Virus record (IMG/VR): IMGVR_UViG_3300045988_018086 | Location: 1-41,184 of that record | Length of the DNA: 41,184 bases | Source of the DNA: a virus | Lineage: Duplodnaviria > Heunggongvirae > Uroviricota > Caudoviricetes | Direction: 5' to 3' (one strand) | Shown: positions 32,102 to 39,391 of the stretch, one piece after another | Numbering within the stretch: position 1 is the stretch's first letter | Layout: every line of letters starts with the position of its first letter | Program-made: the position numbers and the translations under genes | Notes under the pieces: model-generated | What the model saw: the letters and a program-made list of their open reading frames with translations, nothing else | Told to the model about the DNA's origin: nothing | The model's database searches: none

Positions 32102-32293
32102 ATGAAACACGAATATGACCGCAAGCCAGCACGTGACATCGTACCTGGCGATATGATTTTCAACGTTAAGACCCGCCACCCTGTTGCCGTTGATACGGTG
32201 TACGTCGAGTCGAACGGTAAACTGGTTATCGAAGATGTAACTGGTAACGTTACGGCGTTCGGGCGTAAAGAGTTAGTTCTGGTGCTGAAATGA
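32102..32293 (+). CDS. Hypothetical protein
   Basis: ORF with ATGA overlap to helicase gene. Confidence 0.4.
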   Translation: MKHEYDRKPARDIVPGDMIFNVKTRHPVAVDTVYVESNGKLVIEDVTGNVTAFGRKELVLVLK

Positions 32294-33714
32294 GTAAGTT
32301 TCAAAGGCGCGAGTACCAGAAGCTCATGACTTCGTTCATGTTGCGGCACCATCGCTGCAACATATGGGCAAGCATGGGCGCCGGGAAGACGGGCAGTGTC
32401 CTGTGGGCTTTAAACCGACTGTTCCGCAATGGGCAACTTAATGACGACGACCGCGTGTTAATCCTCGCCCCGTTGCGTGTTGCGTCTGGCACGTGGCCCG
32501 CAGAGCAAGAGAAATGGAACTTTCCCTGTCTGAGTGTCGTTGACGCGACCGGTTCAGAGAAGCGCCGCATCGCGGCGCTGGAATCAGACGCTAACGTGGT
32601 GTGTACAAACTACGAAGTTATCGAATGGCTGATTGACTACTACGGCAAAGACGACTGGCCTTTTACCGTTATCGTCGCCGACGAAAGCACGAAGCTGAAA
32701 TCATTCCGCAGCCGTTCAGGTGGAAGCAAGAGGGCGAAGGCGCTAAGTAAAGTTGCGTTCGGTAAGGTTAAGCGTTTCATTAACCTGACTGGTACGCCGT
32801 CGCCGAACGGCCTCAAGGACTTATGGGGCCAGAACTGGTTTATCGACGCGGGTGAGCGCCTCGGTTCTTCATACACAGCATTCACCGACCGCTGGTTTAA
32901 CTCGGTACAGAAAGGCAAATCAGCGATGGCGCGTGAGTATCATGCGCGCCCTGGTGCGGATAATGAAATCCATCAGAAGATGAAGGACATTAGTCTCACG
33001 ATTGACGCCGCTGAGTGGTTCGGTTGCGAAGCGCCAATTATCGTCCCTGTTGAAATTGACCTGCCGAAGAAAGCACGTCAGGCGTACATAGATATGGAGG
33101 AAAAGTTATTCGCAGAACTGGAGAGCGGAGAAGTTGAAGCCGCTAACGCGGCGGCAAAGACGTCAAAGTGCTTGCAAATTGCTTCCGGTGCCGTGTATGT
33201 GACGGGTGACGACGGAGAAGCAACCAAAGACTGGGAGAAAGTGCACGACACGAAACTGGATGCGCTGGAGTCAATTGTTGATGAGTTACAGGGCGCGCCG
33301 TTACTGGTGGCCTATCAGTTCAAGCACGAACTGGAGCGCATCCTTAAGCGATTCCCGCAGGCGCAGGCGTTCGCCAAAGGTGCCAAGGGTAATAAGCAGA
33401 TGGAAGCGTGGAACCGTGGCGAAATCGAAATCCTATGCGTGCACCCCGCGTCAGCCGGCCATGGCTTGAATTTACAGGACGGCGGACATCATCTGGCGTT
33501 TATTTCGCAAGGCTGGAACCTTGAGCACTATTTGCAGGTTGTCGAGCGTATAGGCCCGGTGCGCCAGAAGCAGGCGGGCCACGAGCGACCAGTGTTCATC
33601 TATCACATCGTTGCTAAAGACACGCTGGACGAGGTTGTTGCCTCGCGTACTGACGAGAAGAAATCGGTCCAGGAAGAGTTGCTTAATTACATGAAGAGAC
33701 GAGGTAAGAAATGA
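32290..33714 (+). CDS. Superfamily 2 helicase (SNF2/DEAD-like)
   Basis: Motif I GAGKTG, motif II DESTKLK, motif III LTGTPSPNG, C-terminal helicase domain. Confidence 0.75.
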   Translation: MSKFQRREYQKLMTSFMLRHHRCNIWASMGAGKTGSVLWALNRLFRNGQLNDDDRVLILAPLRVASGTWPAEQEKWNFPCLSVVDATGSEKRRIAALESDANVVCTNYEVIEWLIDYYGKDDWPFTVIVADESTKLKSFRSRSGGSKRAKALSKVAFGKVKRFINLTGTPSPNGLKDLWGQNWFIDAGERLGSSYTAFTDRWFNSVQKGKSAMAREYHARPGADNEIHQKMKDISLTIDAAEWFGCEAPIIVPVEIDLPKKARQAYIDMEEKLFAELESGEVEAANAAAKTSKCLQIASGAVYVTGDDGEATKDWEKVHDTKLDALESIVDELQGAPLLVAYQFKHELERILKRFPQAQAFAKGAKGNKQMEAWNRGEIEILCVHPASAGHGLNLQDGGHHLAFISQGWNLEHYLQVVERIGPVRQKQAGHERPVFIYHIVAKDTLDEVVASRTDEKKSVQEELLNYMKRRGKK

Positions 33715-33848
33715 ACATCATGGCCCCGACTCCGGCATTGCAAAAACGTATCAAGGAACTTGAGGAGGAAGTTCTACGGCTACGGCAGCAGAGAGACGCC
33801 GCTAATGCGCAACTGGCGTTTGTACTGGAGAAGTTATCAGAAGAGTAG
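33711..33848 (+). CDS. Small coiled-coil protein (45 aa)
   Basis: ATGA overlap with helicase stop; heptad pattern. Confidence 0.3.
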   Translation: MNIMAPTPALQKRIKELEEEVLRLRQQRDAANAQLAFVLEKLSEE

Positions 33849-33853
33849 AGAAA

Positions 33854-33871
33854 AGGCCCCGTTTGGGGCCT
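33854..33871. terminator. Bidirectional terminator hairpin (AGGCCCC-GTTT-GGGGCCT), near-identical to 5253..5270
   Basis: Same stem as the 5253 terminator; between convergent helicase-region and tailspike genes. Confidence 0.6.
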
Positions 33872-33876
33872 TAGTT

Positions 33877-36831
33877 TTATTTATCTTCTAGTGCTGCCAG
33901 CCTCTTCTCGAACTCGCGCATCTTCTTACGCTGATAGGCAATCTCTATGAAGAACATCTGGTCCGCCCTAACCCCCCATCTGCCGCCGGGAGGGGATACT
34001 TGTACAGTCTGGCCATCTTCATCAATATCATACGCAGCTTCAATTGAGTCGTAGCACAAGAAAGCATATTTACAATCGGTAGAATCTTTCTCCATAAGCC
34101 CATGGTTGACCAAGATGTCTCGCACATCTTGGGCTATCACACCGAAGTGTATCCTTGCAGTGTCACCCTTGATTGCTAGGCTTTCAAGCCACTTAAAAGA
34201 TATTACATGTATATCCTCCCATGCGGTAAGGAGTTGTCCCTCAATTTCCTCTTTGTTCGTCTTAAGTGTACCATCAGACGTGTTTATCGTACCGGTGGTC
34301 GCGTACACCGTAGTCCACCTATTACCTGCCGAACCTAAAGACACTTGCGAGTCTAAGTAAGGAAGAAAATTGTTGTATGAGTAGAAGCCTCCTGACGCAT
34401 ACATAATAGCCCTGTTAGGCGTTGCATGGTTTGCCCCGTACAGTTGCAGCAACGCACCATCGGAACGGGATGCACCATCACCACCGCTAACTATCAGTCT
34501 TTGACCCGATGGGGTTTTAGTGGGGACTGTTTTTGAAATCAGCCCGTAATCACCATCAAACCGTGCGCGCACGGCAGACTGTTGTGTACCATCGTATTCC
34601 AGCCCCGTTACATGCAGGGAGTACACGCTTACATCATTGTCAAACGTTAAAGGTGCTTCTACATGGCGTACACCATCTACCCCCATGGCGACAGGTATTG
34701 TACGGTTAGGAGTTGCTCCGTATTTGAAATCACGTGATACGTACGGGTGGTCTTCAATCTTTATCCGGTAGCTATATAAGTCAGCCGGATGCCCATCATG
34801 TTTGTACCATAACCTCGCACTGTTATCCCCTATGCTCCAGGGAGAGAAGAAGTCTTCCCCACCAAAGATATAGTACAACCAGCCATCTTTAACACAGACC
34901 GAGCCGACGCCGACAGCAGAGTTAACGATATGACCCTGGTATATTTGGTCGGTAATATTAAACCACTGAACATCATCTAAAGATGAAGGCCATGACGACA
35001 CATTAACTTTGCACATAAAGGTCCTCGGATACGAACCTTCATAGCGGCTGTCCTGCTCGCCACCTTCCCACTCACCAAAGGCACGTTCTGTACCAAAGAT
35101 GTAGAGATAGTCACCTACTTTAGCGAACGGAAGATTGGAGTGATGTACATTGTTCGGAAATCGCAAGTAGCTCCAGTTTTGCCCAGAATCGGTGCTCATC
35201 GCCAGTGTAGAGCCAGGGGAAGTAGGTAATGTGTCGCGTGTGGTAAGGTATAACACACCACCATAACTTTTCACGCACGGCTCACAAGCGTTATCAGCGT
35301 ATGCCTGAGCGACAGTGCGACGAACGAATACGCCAGGATTGTCATACACGTTACTAAAATACAAGACACCGAGACGCCTAGGGGGCACATCGCCGTTGTG
35401 ATAGCCGACAGCGATAGTGTAGTTAACATCATCTATAACCGCAAAACTATGTGTCTCCGTGACACACAAATCAGCGTTAGTGGAGTATGCTACCCCAGGC
35501 AATTCGGTAATTTCCCACGGGCTGTCCCAGAATCGCGTTGCGAAGTTCCAGGTAACACCCGCATTGTTTATGGTGGAACTAGCCGGGCTTGAGAGCGTAA
35601 CAGTGAACGTATTTCGGTTAATTATAGACGAAACCTTCATATTACCCGATACGCCAGTTGCCGATGTATTAGAGAAGTTAACCGCATCTCCTGCTTTTAG
35701 GCCATGATTTTCTATGACAATGGTAGCAGTAGTGGAGCCAGAACTAATAGTTATTCCGCCGGTTGGGTGTCTAAAATACGGCATTGGGCGTGACCAAAGT
35801 TCTGCCTTCTTCATCCGCATATTAGATAAGTAGCGGGTTTCTATAACTGCATATAATCGGTTGCCGCACGTACCCATGCTCATGCAGTGGTAGTTAACTC
35901 TGTCCGTAGAAACACTAGCATTATAGTCAGCATGGATTGGAGTCAACCACTCAGGCATTGACCAAGTCTGCCCGTCGTCTCCAGAGCGAACCCAAGCTAC
36001 ATGTAAGTTTTGAACACCATGTCGTTCGCCCGCCATAAACGGGGCGTAAATAACATGGTCGTAGACGAAAGTTTTATCCTGCGTCCATGCGTTGTAGAAC
36101 GGGGTATCCGTCACCTTAGTTAGTGAGCCGTTAAAGAAGCCATCAGCTACATAAGTAAGCGGTTGCCCGGCTACGCGCTCGTAAACGAATGCAGCATTCT
36201 TAAATTTACTAATGTCAGGTAATTGGGAAACTTTATAAGTCAAACCCCTGCCGTCTATAATCCAATTGTTGGGGGAAGCTGCTAATACATTAAAAATAGA
36301 TTGAGTATCATCAGTTACGCCGTCGCCCACGGCGCCCCATGCGCGCGGGTCGTATTCGTCCTTCCATCGCGCCACATGTAAATCTGGGTACAGAATTGCA
36401 CCGTTTACATCAGATATTTGCTGCCGCAGTATGACCGACCCGACAGGCTGCCACGCCCCATCTGCCACGCCACCGGTGGACTGCGGAGAAGATGACGCTG
36501 GGATAATTTTTGGTAGAGCACCCAACCAATAGTACCAATCCCCGTCACCGCCAGAGGACGACGGCCACAAAACTGCGGTGTTTCGGTCGTTAGCGGATAG
36601 TGTACCGCCTGACGTGAAATCAAAATCTGCCAGTTTAAAACCTGCGTCACGCAACACGGCGGGGAGTGTCTTCTGCGTCTGTCCAGTAACCTGATTTGTC
36701 GCGTAATCAATATCGGCACCACCGGCGACACCGCCGGATTTGCCAGTGATAACCTCGGCCTCGAAAATCTGATGTTTCTTGGCGGTTTGTAAATCCGCCA
36801 GGCTTAAAACGTCACCGCATCCGCTTGACAT
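33877..36831 (-). CDS. Tailspike: endosialidase (endo-N-acetylneuraminidase)-like with C-terminal intramolecular chaperone autoproteolysis domain
   Basis: 984 aa; C-terminal TSDGTLKTNKEEI...ISFKWL block typical of the self-cleaving chaperone domain; beta-propeller/beta-helix-like repeats. Confidence 0.7.
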   Translation of the reverse strand: MSSGCGDVLSLADLQTAKKHQIFEAEVITGKSGGVAGGADIDYATNQVTGQTQKTLPAVLRDAGFKLADFDFTSGGTLSANDRNTAVLWPSSSGGDGDWYYWLGALPKIIPASSSPQSTGGVADGAWQPVGSVILRQQISDVNGAILYPDLHVARWKDEYDPRAWGAVGDGVTDDTQSIFNVLAASPNNWIIDGRGLTYKVSQLPDISKFKNAAFVYERVAGQPLTYVADGFFNGSLTKVTDTPFYNAWTQDKTFVYDHVIYAPFMAGERHGVQNLHVAWVRSGDDGQTWSMPEWLTPIHADYNASVSTDRVNYHCMSMGTCGNRLYAVIETRYLSNMRMKKAELWSRPMPYFRHPTGGITISSGSTTATIVIENHGLKAGDAVNFSNTSATGVSGNMKVSSIINRNTFTVTLSSPASSTINNAGVTWNFATRFWDSPWEITELPGVAYSTNADLCVTETHSFAVIDDVNYTIAVGYHNGDVPPRRLGVLYFSNVYDNPGVFVRRTVAQAYADNACEPCVKSYGGVLYLTTRDTLPTSPGSTLAMSTDSGQNWSYLRFPNNVHHSNLPFAKVGDYLYIFGTERAFGEWEGGEQDSRYEGSYPRTFMCKVNVSSWPSSLDDVQWFNITDQIYQGHIVNSAVGVGSVCVKDGWLYYIFGGEDFFSPWSIGDNSARLWYKHDGHPADLYSYRIKIEDHPYVSRDFKYGATPNRTIPVAMGVDGVRHVEAPLTFDNDVSVYSLHVTGLEYDGTQQSAVRARFDGDYGLISKTVPTKTPSGQRLIVSGGDGASRSDGALLQLYGANHATPNRAIMYASGGFYSYNNFLPYLDSQVSLGSAGNRWTTVYATTGTINTSDGTLKTNKEEIEGQLLTAWEDIHVISFKWLESLAIKGDTARIHFGVIAQDVRDILVNHGLMEKDSTDCKYAFLCYDSIEAAYDIDEDGQTVQVSPPGGRWGVRADQMFFIEIAYQRKKMREFEKRLAALEDK

Positions 36832-36843
36832 ATAGAGTCCTCT

Positions 36844-38238
36844 TTAATTAAAACCATTGCTGAATCCGTCGGAGAAACCGCTGCCGTATGGCGCGACGCC
36901 GTCGTATTTGTAGAATCCGTCGTCATAGTTGTAGCCAGTAATCTTGACCGTGCGGTCGTCGCCAGGGTCGATTGAAGAAACAACTATCTTCTGAGCATTA
37001 TGCCTTGCTTCGTTGCCGAATGAAAACTCAGTTTTTAGTGCGCTATTCCCTGTGTAGATTGCTTCCTCTGGGGCAGAAAGCATAATCACTTCGCGGTCGT
37101 GGCTTCCTTTGATAACAGAGATACTCTGCACAGAGCCGTCGCGCTTCTTAAGAATGATGGAGTGGTCATCGCCAGGGGTAAACGTAACAGGCTGCGACAG
37201 CGTCAGCGTAAGCCCATTAACGGCAACAACATAACCATCCTGCGGAGCAATACGTGAACCTTTAACCACGCTGATTACGCCGCCGGGTGTAGCGAGCGAA
37301 CCTTCTTCAGTAGCTTCGAACTCTACGACAACTTTACTTAACGCATTGCGCTGATATCGACGCCACGCAAGCCAGTACGCCTGCTGGTAGTTGCGCACGC
37401 CCTTCGATTCGTATTCCTCCGTATTTGCACCGAGTTCTTCCGGGATATAAATCGTTTCCTGTACGTTAGTATCCGGGTCGATGTATGAGAACGACAGGCT
37501 ATCGTAGGTCGTAGAATCGTTGAATGTGCGCGTCCATTTCTCTGTACCAGTAGTTTTGCTGCGGTGGGTGAACACCATCTCGGGCCCAGCAACCGGACGG
37601 TCGAAACGCAGCATAATGTCCGCGCCTTTACGGTACGCAGTACAGAACACGGCTTCCGCTATAGTCTGAACGATGTCCTGCATCGTGGTGTCGTAGTCGT
37701 CGAACGTGTAGCAGAACTGCCCCGCTAATTCACTTCCGAAATAGGACTCAATCTCTTCTTGCACAGCAAGTAACTTGTCCATGTTTGCCGTTGTCAGTTC
37801 CAGATTGCCCACCGCAGGGTCGCGAGCAAGTCTGATTAGCGACTGCACCGCCTGTGTATTAGGAGTCATTACCGTATCGAATACACCATTACCGAGGTAT
37901 TTGTAGCACATCTCGGTTGCAATCATGCGCAGTTCAGGGTTGTTGATACTGGCGGCACGCGGCGTCTGTTTACGGGCGCAATGCACCGTTGTCCTGTTGC
38001 CGTAATGTGAGGTAGTGTCCAGTGACTGCCCATACAGGTTGATAAAGGTTATCTCGTCGCTTACCGTTCCGTCGTAGTCTTTATCAAAATTCGTTATACG
38101 GCGCATGCGGGCGCGGAAACGCGATGCAGTAGGTAGTCGCCCGTAGATAGACGTGCCGACGTAGTCGGTATTGTTGCCTGTAATTGTAGCTCGTACCGTG
38201 TAAATATCGCTCAATGGGTTGCGCTGAGAGTCAATCAT
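36844..38238 (-). CDS. Tail tip / host specificity protein (lambda J-like central domain)
   Basis: Region resembles the J-protein conserved core; position in tail tip cluster. Confidence 0.5.
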   Translation of the reverse strand: MIDSQRNPLSDIYTVRATITGNNTDYVGTSIYGRLPTASRFRARMRRITNFDKDYDGTVSDEITFINLYGQSLDTTSHYGNRTTVHCARKQTPRAASINNPELRMIATEMCYKYLGNGVFDTVMTPNTQAVQSLIRLARDPAVGNLELTTANMDKLLAVQEEIESYFGSELAGQFCYTFDDYDTTMQDIVQTIAEAVFCTAYRKGADIMLRFDRPVAGPEMVFTHRSKTTGTEKWTRTFNDSTTYDSLSFSYIDPDTNVQETIYIPEELGANTEEYESKGVRNYQQAYWLAWRRYQRNALSKVVVEFEATEEGSLATPGGVISVVKGSRIAPQDGYVVAVNGLTLTLSQPVTFTPGDDHSIILKKRDGSVQSISVIKGSHDREVIMLSAPEEAIYTGNSALKTEFSFGNEARHNAQKIVVSSIDPGDDRTVKITGYNYDDGFYKYDGVAPYGSGFSDGFSNGFN

Positions 38239-39391
38239 CTGGTACTGGAGTTACGCTGGTGCGATTATAGCCGCCGTCGTATTTGTAGAGGCCGTTCTGC
38301 CCTGCAACGTTAGCGAGTACCCTGTCAACTTCTCCGCGCACCATGTAATACCAGTCTGTAAGGGACACATCGTACGTGTTGCTCGGGCCTATAAACGTAT
38401 CTGAACGCTCTGTTAGGGCATACGTCTGCCCGCTATTAAGACGGCCCCAGTTAGAGGCACCGTTTACCGCTAATCTTACTTCGAAGTCGTCAACGTATAA
38501 AACCTCAAACGAGCCGTTCAGGTCAGCGATGTCCTTAACGTCAAAGTTGCGTAGCACCGCAACATCACCAACACTAAGAAACTCAGAAAAAGCAGAGTCT
38601 CCTGACGGGTCATAGATGTAGCCTGTGTTTGTGATACGTTTAGCTGTGCCACCGGCGCTTGGGTTAGCTCCGATGTCGTTTGGCGCTTTCAGTACAATAC
38701 CGTCAACGTCGTCGTTGGAGTATGTCACGTAGAGTTTCTGGTCAATGACGTCGCCGATTTGTAGTTGCGGTGAAGTTGTGTTGTTAGGTGACGTATAAGG
38801 CGCATACACGGCAACAGAGGAACCGGTGATGTCGCTTATCAGGGTATCGCCTTCCGTGACGCCATCAGACTCGATATGCAGATGCCCGCGCCCGGCATCA
38901 TAGTACGAATACTCCAGCAAAGCACCCGTGGAGTTGAACGCCTTATACGTCTGCATCAGGTCGTTAGGGATTGTCTGCACAGTCCCGCAGATGTCATAAG
39001 AGCGCTCATAGGGGCGCGGCTTGTTGGAGCGGTCTGTGAGACTGTTATTAGGCGATGTTGTCTGGTTGTTAGTCGCCGTGTAGTTGGCGTTGGTGGCCGT
39101 GTTCAGACCGAACAACTTGGCAATTGGCTTAAGGATAAAACCGAACACCTTACTAACTGCACCGAGCGCCCCGCTACCGGCACCCTCAATAATGTGGTAC
39201 ACGGCGTCTTCGTCTTTGAGTGCGTCGAAGTCGTCGGTGACATCAGTATCATCGCCAATCTCGCCCAGGTAGACGCGCACCGGCACGCCGTCCGGGATAC
39301 GGTTAACAACAAACTCCATCGGCATCCCGACGTGTTTTGTACGGTCGAAAGCTCCATCAGTGTTTCGCGTGTAGTGCAGGATTATCGCCAA
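38231..39391 (-). CDS. Tail tip protein
   Basis: Synteny; shares C-terminal YKYDG motif with 36844..38238. Confidence 0.4.
   Translation of the reverse strand: MAIILHYTRNTDGAFDRTKHVGMPMEFVVNRIPDGVPVRVYLGEIGDDTDVTDDFDALKDEDAVYHIIEGAGSGALGAVSKVFGFILKPIAKLFGLNTATNANYTATNNQTTSPNNSLTDRSNKPRPYERSYDICGTVQTIPNDLMQTYKAFNSTGALLEYSYYDAGRGHLHIESDGVTEGDTLISDITGSSVAVYAPYTSPNNTTSPQLQIGDVIDQKLYVTYSNDDVDGIVLKAPNDIGANPSAGGTAKRITNTGYIYDPSGDSAFSEFLSVGDVAVLRNFDVKDIADLNGSFEVLYVDDFEVRLAVNGASNWGRLNSGQTYALTERSDTFIGPSNTYDVSLTDWYYMVRGEVDRVLANVAGQNGLYKYDGGYNRTSVTPVPDD

Follow-up and report, generated by a model that had tools for sequence, protein, structure and literature searches.

A probable endosialidase tailspike with a self-cleaving C-terminal chaperone in a K1G-like siphovirus genome

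The gene at 33877..36831 (minus strand) raises a simple question: is its product an endosialidase throughout, or does it share with endosialidases only the chaperone domain at its C-terminal end? The window, by which we mean the whole stretch of 41,184 nucleotides analyzed here, is an IMG/VR virus record (IMGVR_UViG_3300045988_018086). We put at roughly 0.94 the probability that the gene specifies, as judged from its sequence, a receptor-destroying endosialidase tailspike of a K1G-like siphovirus with a self-cleaving chaperone. The observations that carry this reading are the domain architecture, the conservation of key residues and the near-identity to characterized enzymes.

The gene is a single open reading frame with an ATG start, 984 codons and a TAA stop, and it carries the TGTINTSDGTLKTNKEEIEGQLLTAWEDIHVISFKWLESL block at its C-terminal end, as the initial annotation had described. 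A Shine-Dalgarno sequence, AAGAGGA (36838..36844, minus strand), can be read 6 nt 5′ of the ATG, where it shares nucleotides with the stop codon of the preceding tail gene. The start and length of the tailspike are annotated identically in K1G, K1H, 63D, JSSK01 and others, and the overlapping ORFs (34106-34360, 35398-35592 and 35459-35707 on the plus strand; 36405-36731 and 33945-34127 on the minus strand) gave no Pfam match. The ORF is confirmed as a real gene.

The tailspike gene is the last of the tail operon, following a gpJ-like tail protein. A GC-rich hairpin, AAGGCCCC-GTTT-GGGGCCTT (33853..33872, assigned to neither strand), lies 4 nt past the tailspike stop with T-rich sequence on both flanks. 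In a terminator scan with folding its stability was -21.1 kcal/mol (z = -4.5), a value equaled by none of 200 shuffles. It probably serves as an intrinsic terminator in both directions, separating the tail module from the convergent replication module. On the other side of the gene, the upstream tail-protein gene is split in the window by an 8-bp deletion within 38200-38270 (a frameshift), which raises some doubt about the sequence quality or the viability of this exact genome. The deletion junction was absent from IMG/VR, and an exact-protein look-up gave no record of the tailspike or of the 464-aa tail half.

The protein begins with a virion-attachment module (aa 1-145; 36397..36831; this and all protein features below are on the minus strand), which includes Tail_spike_N (aa 97-131; PF18668, E 1e-13) and matches the N-terminal domains of PDB 9vvr and 4oj5. 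The module is common to non-sialidase tailspikes of Guernseyvirinae: aa 1-138 are ~70% identical to Salmonella Jersey-like phage spikes and 68% to K1ind2, and the similarity stops there. The endosialidase part opens with an N-terminal extension (aa 167-233; 36133..36333; PF12218, E 7.5e-38 over the whole profile) and continues with the six-bladed beta-propeller catalytic domain (aa 234-693; 34753..36132; PF12217, End_beta_propel, E 1.3e-220, profile 1-367/367), into which a lectin-like beta-barrel is inserted (aa 351-433; 35533..35781; PF12195, E 4e-40, profile 1-83/83). The stalk, a triple beta-helix/beta-prism (aa 694-851; 34279..34752; PF12219, E 2e-74, full-length), ends where 4hiz ends. 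The C-terminal intramolecular chaperone follows (Peptidase S74; aa 852-984, 15.2 kDa; 33880..34278), with PF13884 (Peptidase_S74) scoring 48.9 bits over aa 852-912, above the cut-off of 22. In all, the four endosialidase Pfam domains are matched over their full length before Peptidase_S74 is reached. Structures give the same picture. PDB 4hiz, the phi92 endosialidase, matches with E = 0 and ~80% identity over aa 166-851, an identity to a solved structure that settles the fold; endoNF (1v0e/3gvl) matches at E ~1e-226 (1v0e, 2e-226), and its stalk plus chaperone (3gw6) at E 7e-56, aligned through aa 984. The initial call of an endosialidase-type tailspike is borne out by these matches, which go well past anything that chance would give.

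The catalytic residues point the same way. An alignment with K1F endoNF had been proposed as a check, their absence being taken to count against an endosialidase. All are conserved: H271 (36019-36021), R485 (35377-35379), E517 (35281-35283), R532 (35236-35238) and R583 (35083-35085) correspond to endoNF H350, R549, E581, R596 and R647, whose importance in endoNF has been documented (PMC12632334). They are kept when K1F and five further lineages are aligned to the protein with MAFFT; the residue comparisons took in K1F, K1E-like, AAPEc6, YX22 and phAPEC8. Propeller, catalytic residues, beta-barrel and stalk, the marks of a GH58 endosialidase, are all present.

The chaperone, too, is a bona fide S74 domain, as first proposed. 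It has a Ser-x4-Lys dyad after a Thr, formed by the nucleophile S852 (34276-34278; endoNF S911) and the general base K857 (34261-34263; endoNF K916), with Asp and Arg upstream at -25 and -14. In the alignment, D827 and R838 of the stalk are endoNF D886 and R897, and T851 is endoNF T910. This autoproteolysis set (D827, R838, T851, S852, K857) is conserved across K1F, K1E-like, AAPEc6, YX22 and phAPEC8. The site of cleavage needs to be corrected. The initial annotation expected it at the Ser-Asp of TSDG, but three comparisons place it at T851|S852 and not at S852|D853: the K1F RefSeq mat_peptide ends at T910; the 4HIZ chain ends ...GTINT, at the residue aligned to T851; and in T5 pb1 the cleaved bond is Thr1263-Ser1264, with Lys1269, Arg1250 and Asp1239 matching the window residues (PMC4690869). 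The predicted scissile bond is hence Thr851|Ser852, and Ser852 would depart with the chaperone as its residue 1. The computed masses are 108.3 kDa for the full-length protein and 93.1 kDa for aa 1-851. The latter agrees with the size of the processed K1H enzyme, whose recombinant form migrates at 93 kDa and is described as 'after proteolysis' (PMC5696595).

We infer trimerization, cleavage and enzymatic activity of this allele by homology to K1F endoNF and phi92 endoN92, and on that basis the following course can be proposed. Folding of three chains into a trimer would be nucleated by the chaperone at the C-terminal end (aa 852-984). After the stalk has formed its triple beta-helix, Asp827, together with Arg838 from a neighboring chain, would position the Thr851-Ser852 bond for attack by Ser852, activated by Lys857. 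Cleavage would free the 15-kDa chaperone and leave a 93-kDa mature spike ending in Thr851, held at the tail tip, as a trimer, by its N-terminal ~145 residues. Binding of alpha-2,8-polysialic acid, the capsule of E. coli K1, would fall to the stalk and to the mushroom-shaped head (propeller and beta-barrel), and the propeller active site (H271, R485, E517, R532, R583) would cut the polymer endolytically, so that the phage could bore its way through this layer and reach the outer membrane.

The choice of the K1 capsule as receptor, also made in the initial annotation, gains from the relatives. The tailspike gene is 95.5-99.6% identical in nucleotide sequence to those of 19 Kagunavirus-type phage records, several with hosts given as O18:K1:H7 (the deposited 63D gene is 96.5% identical; that of P AB-2017, at other coordinates, 97.0%). 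At the protein level identity is 99.2% to the K1G tailspike and 97.5% to the endo-N-acetylneuraminidase of coliphage 63D. The phages with orthologues 97-99% identical were isolated on K1 strains or are specific for them. The K1H and JSSK01 ORF40 enzymes each differ from the window's by 28 aa; recombinant K1H enzyme degrades purified K1 capsule in vitro (PMC5696595), as JSSK01 ORF40 degrades K1 capsule (PMC11641727), and the window's enzyme would be expected to act on the same receptor.

The receptor range might be wider. The closest solved structure is that of phi92 gp143 (endoN92), at ~80% identity vs 50% to endoNF, and according to PMC13450770, which cites Schwarzer 2015, gp143 hydrolyzes both types of polysialic acid. 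A similar bifunctional enzyme, cleaving alpha-2,9 in addition to alpha-2,8 linkages and extending the host range to K92-type capsules, would add to the main explanation and not replace it. We consider it unlikely, although not negligibly so; the close relatives whose host is on record were all isolated on K1 strains.

The allele itself has some peculiarities. Four substitutions in the window, T399K, S516C, G533D and S789R, are absent from 13 close relatives, and of five nucleotide changes found in the window alone, four are non-synonymous. T399K lies in the beta-barrel and S789R in the stalk. S516C adjoins catalytic Glu517, and G533D falls within the TRGT motif adjoining catalytic Arg532, so placed that activity could be altered. 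G533 of this motif is invariant in K1G, 63D, phAPEC8, K1F, YX22, K1E-like and AAPEc6, Asp being found in the window only. There is precedent for a binding-only endosialidase: in PK1A2, two substitutions, derived by comparison with K1E-like phages, abolish cleavage while binding is kept (PMC5715158). That G533D and S516C have similarly weakened or abolished catalysis here we regard as very unlikely. The residues changed in PK1A2 (H417Y, N489D) are intact in the window protein as H563 and N637, as are all five catalytic residues, and beta-strand side chains adjoining a catalytic residue would usually face away from the active site. A pattern search with IUPAC codes for the G533D codon context had no match in IMG/VR but found it in four metagenome contigs, of which a single one carries a tailspike. 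This contig, UMEM01005876.1, is nearly identical to the window (1 nt different in 3.1 kb) and has K399, C516 and D533; its tailspike locus stops at aa 575, short of residue 789 and the deletion site. The pair suggests a propagating lineage, which argues against a weakened allele. Somewhat less improbable, though still doubtful, is that the four substitutions, which cluster at functional sites, together adjust how fast or how processively the enzyme of this lineage cleaves, or how it discriminates between K1 hosts. If true, such changes would parallel in nature the 'tuning' mutations that deep mutational scanning of K1F has mapped (PMC12632334).

That the chaperone alone is shared, by a spike of other, non-sialidase specificity, can be dismissed: S74 chaperones do occur on many fibers of unrelated kinds (T5 pb1, GA-1, Klebsiella phage fibers), and K1ind spikes do have the N-terminus in common under an HK620-like head (K1ind2 only aa 1-147), but here crystal structures of endosialidases can be aligned to the whole of aa 166-851, with full endosialidase domains and every catalytic residue in place.

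The window as a whole belongs to Kagunavirus (K1G-like Guernseyvirinae siphoviruses). Its positions 20000-41184 are ~94% identical to K1H and K1G over 92-93% of the length, and the gene order (tail proteins, tailspike, convergent helicase) is theirs. The feature is, by this assignment, already known: characterization of the enzyme class, structure, catalytic residues and self-cleaving chaperone dates from 2000-2015, and GenBank contains near-identical genes. The identification serves annotation and links the window to a group of phages that therapy models already employ, but it adds no new biology; only the substitutions beside the active site and the frameshift in the upstream tail gene are of some interest.

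Among known systems, the tailspikes of K1G, K1H, UTI89UKE1, L and P AB-2017, JSSK01 and 63D (BAA32990) are the closest, with equal length (984 aa), start, genomic position and domain order, and 8 to 30 of 984 residues different. The 63D sialidase has been reported as tetrameric, at odds with the trimeric family (review PMC5380687). In phi92 gp143 (4HIZ), catalytic head and stalk are ~80% identical to the window's, and the phAPEC8 homologue is 74% identical over aa 133-984, chaperone included; the N-terminal attachment module of both is unlike the window's, serving a myovirus baseplate vs a siphovirus tail tip. K1F endoNF (1V0E, 3GVJ-L, 3GW6) is the mechanistic reference, with the same fold order at ~50% identity but a T7 gp17-like N-terminus, unlike the window protein. 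Its K410 is Asn337 here, and its stalk residues S848 and Q853, reportedly described as polysialic acid contacts by Stummeyer in 2005, are Arg789 and Leu794. A literature search on the endoNF stalk contacts R837/S848/Q853 returned nothing relevant. More distant are the chaperones of T5 pb1, GA-1 gp12 and MYRF, which are ~30% identical to the window's and joined to unrelated passenger domains. They have the same Ser-x4-Lys dyad and upstream Asp/Arg, and cut at Thr|Ser only once the trimer has assembled (PMC4690869, PMC3742443).

The minus-strand frame at 33877..36831 is listed among the ORFs of the window as one continuous ORF of 984 codons with the block TINTSDGTLKTNKEEIEGQLLTAWEDIHVISFKWLESL inside it, which bears out the 984-aa product described in the initial annotation. 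Its ATG follows a strong Shine-Dalgarno sequence (AAGAGGA, 36838-36844, minus strand) that shares bases with the stop codon of the tail gene upstream. Four nt past the TAA lies a hairpin (AAGGCCCC-GTTT-GGGGCCTT, 33853-33872; -21.1 kcal/mol, z = -4.5 against shuffles) with T-rich flanks on both sides, dividing the minus-strand tail operon from a convergent plus-strand replication module. The latter includes a helicase (32290-33714, plus strand), followed by a conserved 45-aa ORF (33711-33848, plus strand) that overlaps the helicase stop codon and belongs to PHROG 5915, of unknown function. Orthologues of this ORF in phages L and P AB-2017 and in Esher4 are labelled 'exonuclease subunit SbcD (provisional)' or 'exonuclease', which looks like annotation carry-over, the protein having only 45 residues. 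The ORFs overlapping the tailspike gene on either strand had no Pfam match.

The Pfam domains of the tailspike make up the complete endosialidase architecture: Tail_spike_N (aa 97-131, E 1e-13), End_N_terminal (aa 167-233, E 7.5e-38), End_beta_propel over its full profile (aa 234-693, E 1.3e-220) with End_beta_barrel inserted (aa 351-433, E 4e-40), the stalk End_tail_spike (aa 694-851, E 2e-74) and Peptidase_S74 (aa 852-912, 48.9 bits against a cut-off of 22). Among solved structures 4HIZ, the phi92 endosialidase, matches best (E = 0, aa 166-851, ~80% identity), followed by K1F endoNF (1V0E and 3GVJ-L, E ~1e-226); the match to 3GW6, the endoNF stalk and chaperone (E 7e-56), extends to the final residue of the tailspike. 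A deep-mutational-scanning study gives the catalytic residues of K1F as H350, R549, E581, R596 and R647 (PMC12632334). In a MAFFT alignment with endoNF all five are conserved, as H271, R485, E517, R532 and R583, and they are also kept in the K1E-like, AAPEc6, YX22 (Ackermannviridae) and phAPEC8 (phi92-like) enzymes. The likeness is thus not confined to the chaperone, and the proposal of an endosialidase-type tailspike stands, since the catalytic residues are all conserved. Every sequence-testable defining feature of an endosialidase/GH58 tailspike with an S74 chaperone is present, and by sequence the protein classes as a member of that family, in the 63D/K1G/K1H group. The allele in the window would be expected to hydrolyse polysialic acid.

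The self-cleavage site had been placed at the Ser-Asp bond of TSDG, one residue too far. S74 chaperones use a Ser/Lys dyad to cleave a Thr-Ser bond, and do so only once the triple beta-helix is in place; a neighbouring chain supplies an Arg that completes the site, and the chaperone carries the Ser away (PMC4690869, T5 pb1; PMC3742443, MYRF). Aligned to endoNF, T851-S852 corresponds to T910-S911 and K857 to K916, and upstream D827 and R838 correspond to D886 and R897. Both the end of the K1F RefSeq mat_peptide (T910) and the chain end of 4HIZ (...GTINT, aligned to T851) agree with cleavage at Thr-Ser. Cleavage there is predicted to give products of 93.1 kDa (aa 1-851) and 15.2 kDa (aa 852-984). 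Recombinant K1H depolymerase runs at 93 kDa 'after proteolysis'; in vitro it breaks down purified K1 capsule, and it also rescues infected mice (PMC5696595). JSSK01 ORF40 likewise degrades K1 capsule (PMC11641727). The window allele presumably trimerises and is cleaved likewise.

Compared at the nucleotide level with 11 close relatives, the gene has five private states, four of them protein-changing: T399K, S516C, G533D and S789R (window 35636, 35285, 35234 and 34467). None of the four occurs in these 11 or in two IMG/VR relatives compared as protein, 13 close relatives in all. Random read errors do not account for K399, C516 and D533, as a metagenome contig (UMEM01005876.1), one base different from the window over 3.1 kb, shares all three. 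K399 is also found in one K1E-like enzyme, and at position 789 other enzymes have Ser, Val or Ala. Two changes adjoin catalytic residues: C516 (Ser or Ala elsewhere) directly precedes Glu517, and D533 directly follows Arg532, replacing the Gly of a TRGT motif that all other E. coli phage endosialidases in the comparison keep unchanged. The substitutions might, with low probability, retune activity or host discrimination. In PK1A2, a phage whose endosialidase binds polysialic acid without cleaving it, we infer the mutated residues to be H417Y and N489D. As the equivalent H563 and N637 are unchanged here, we treat the four substitutions as probable polymorphisms of a functional enzyme.

The tailspike gene is 99.6% identical in nucleotides to that of vB_EcoS-UTI89UKE1, 98.7% to K1G, 97.2% to K1H and 96.5% to the deposited endo-N-acetylneuraminidase gene of coliphage 63D ('Phage #D'); the protein differs from K1G at 8 residues, from 63D at 25 and from K1H at 28. 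Across 92-93% of its length, the half of the window at 20000-41184 is ~94% identical to K1H and K1G, and gene order around the tailspike is that of K1G and UTI89UKE1. On these similarities the window is classed as a Kagunavirus genome (a K1G-like Guernseyvirinae siphovirus). O18:K1:H7 is recorded as host for several relatives, and endosialidase was found in 9/9 K1 phages of the Smith-Huggins collection (PMC5582158). In phage MirsaeidiM_Esher4 (PQ579973.1) the annotated endosialidase CDS does not start until locus position 1766 and covers a 429-aa C-terminal part; that annotation is truncated, because the full 984-codon frame is open there, with 21 residues different from the window protein.

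Upstream, 8 bp present in K1G and K1ind2 (AACGGTAG, flanked by short AAC repeats) are deleted at 38231-38238, which cuts a gpJ-like distal tail protein gene (~830-850 aa) into minus-strand ORFs of 386 aa (38231..39391) and 464 aa (36844..38238), which overlap by ATGATTGA and match positions 1-284 and 452-901 of the PHROG 469 profile. The site measures 301 nt in the window and 309 nt in all 40 records listed of 43 matching phage records, among which the deletion is unique to the window. Its junction was not found in IMG/VR, and an exact-protein look-up returned no match for the split product. Either an essential tail gene is truly divided here, or the split reflects an error of assembly or sequencing. 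The ~825-bp C-specific DNA (cytosine) methylase gene located in K1G and UTI89UKE1 between the helicase and a 63-aa ORF is absent from the window, where that ORF (32102..32293) and the helicase directly adjoin (junction 32290-32293). Neither tRNA genes nor Rfam matches occur in the window.

The endosialidase tailspike is a correct finding and an ordinary one, as nothing about it is new in kind. An island at ~33880-37630 (the tailspike gene together with the 3′-terminal part of the tail gene upstream) against UTI89UKE1, and at about 34030-36430 against K1G, is 98.7-100% identical, whereas the segments on either side are 84-94%. Exchange of a receptor-binding cassette by recombination typically leaves such a pattern, and the high identity between less similar flanks suggests that the endosialidase cassette has recently spread by this route among Kagunaviruses. 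The spikes of the K1-independent phages K1ind2 and K1ind3 are named 'tailspike 63D sialidase' in their original GenBank entries (GU196280, GU196281), a misleading annotation: only their N-terminal ~147 residues are shared with the sialidase, and they carry HK620-like heads. The module seam lies directly past the conserved GAWxxVG...LRxQIS motif of Tail_spike_N. The N-termini of Salmonella Jersey-like phage tailspikes are ~70% identical to residues 1 to ~138, and that of K1ind2, whose spike goes on with its HK620-like head, is 68% identical to them. Starting at aa 133, the rest of the protein is 74% identical to the enzyme of the phi92-like myovirus phAPEC8. In structure its nearest relative is phi92 gp143, a bifunctional enzyme that acts on alpha-2,8 and alpha-2,9 linkages (PMC13450770), and by analogy the tailspike may have a side activity on K92-type polysialic acid.
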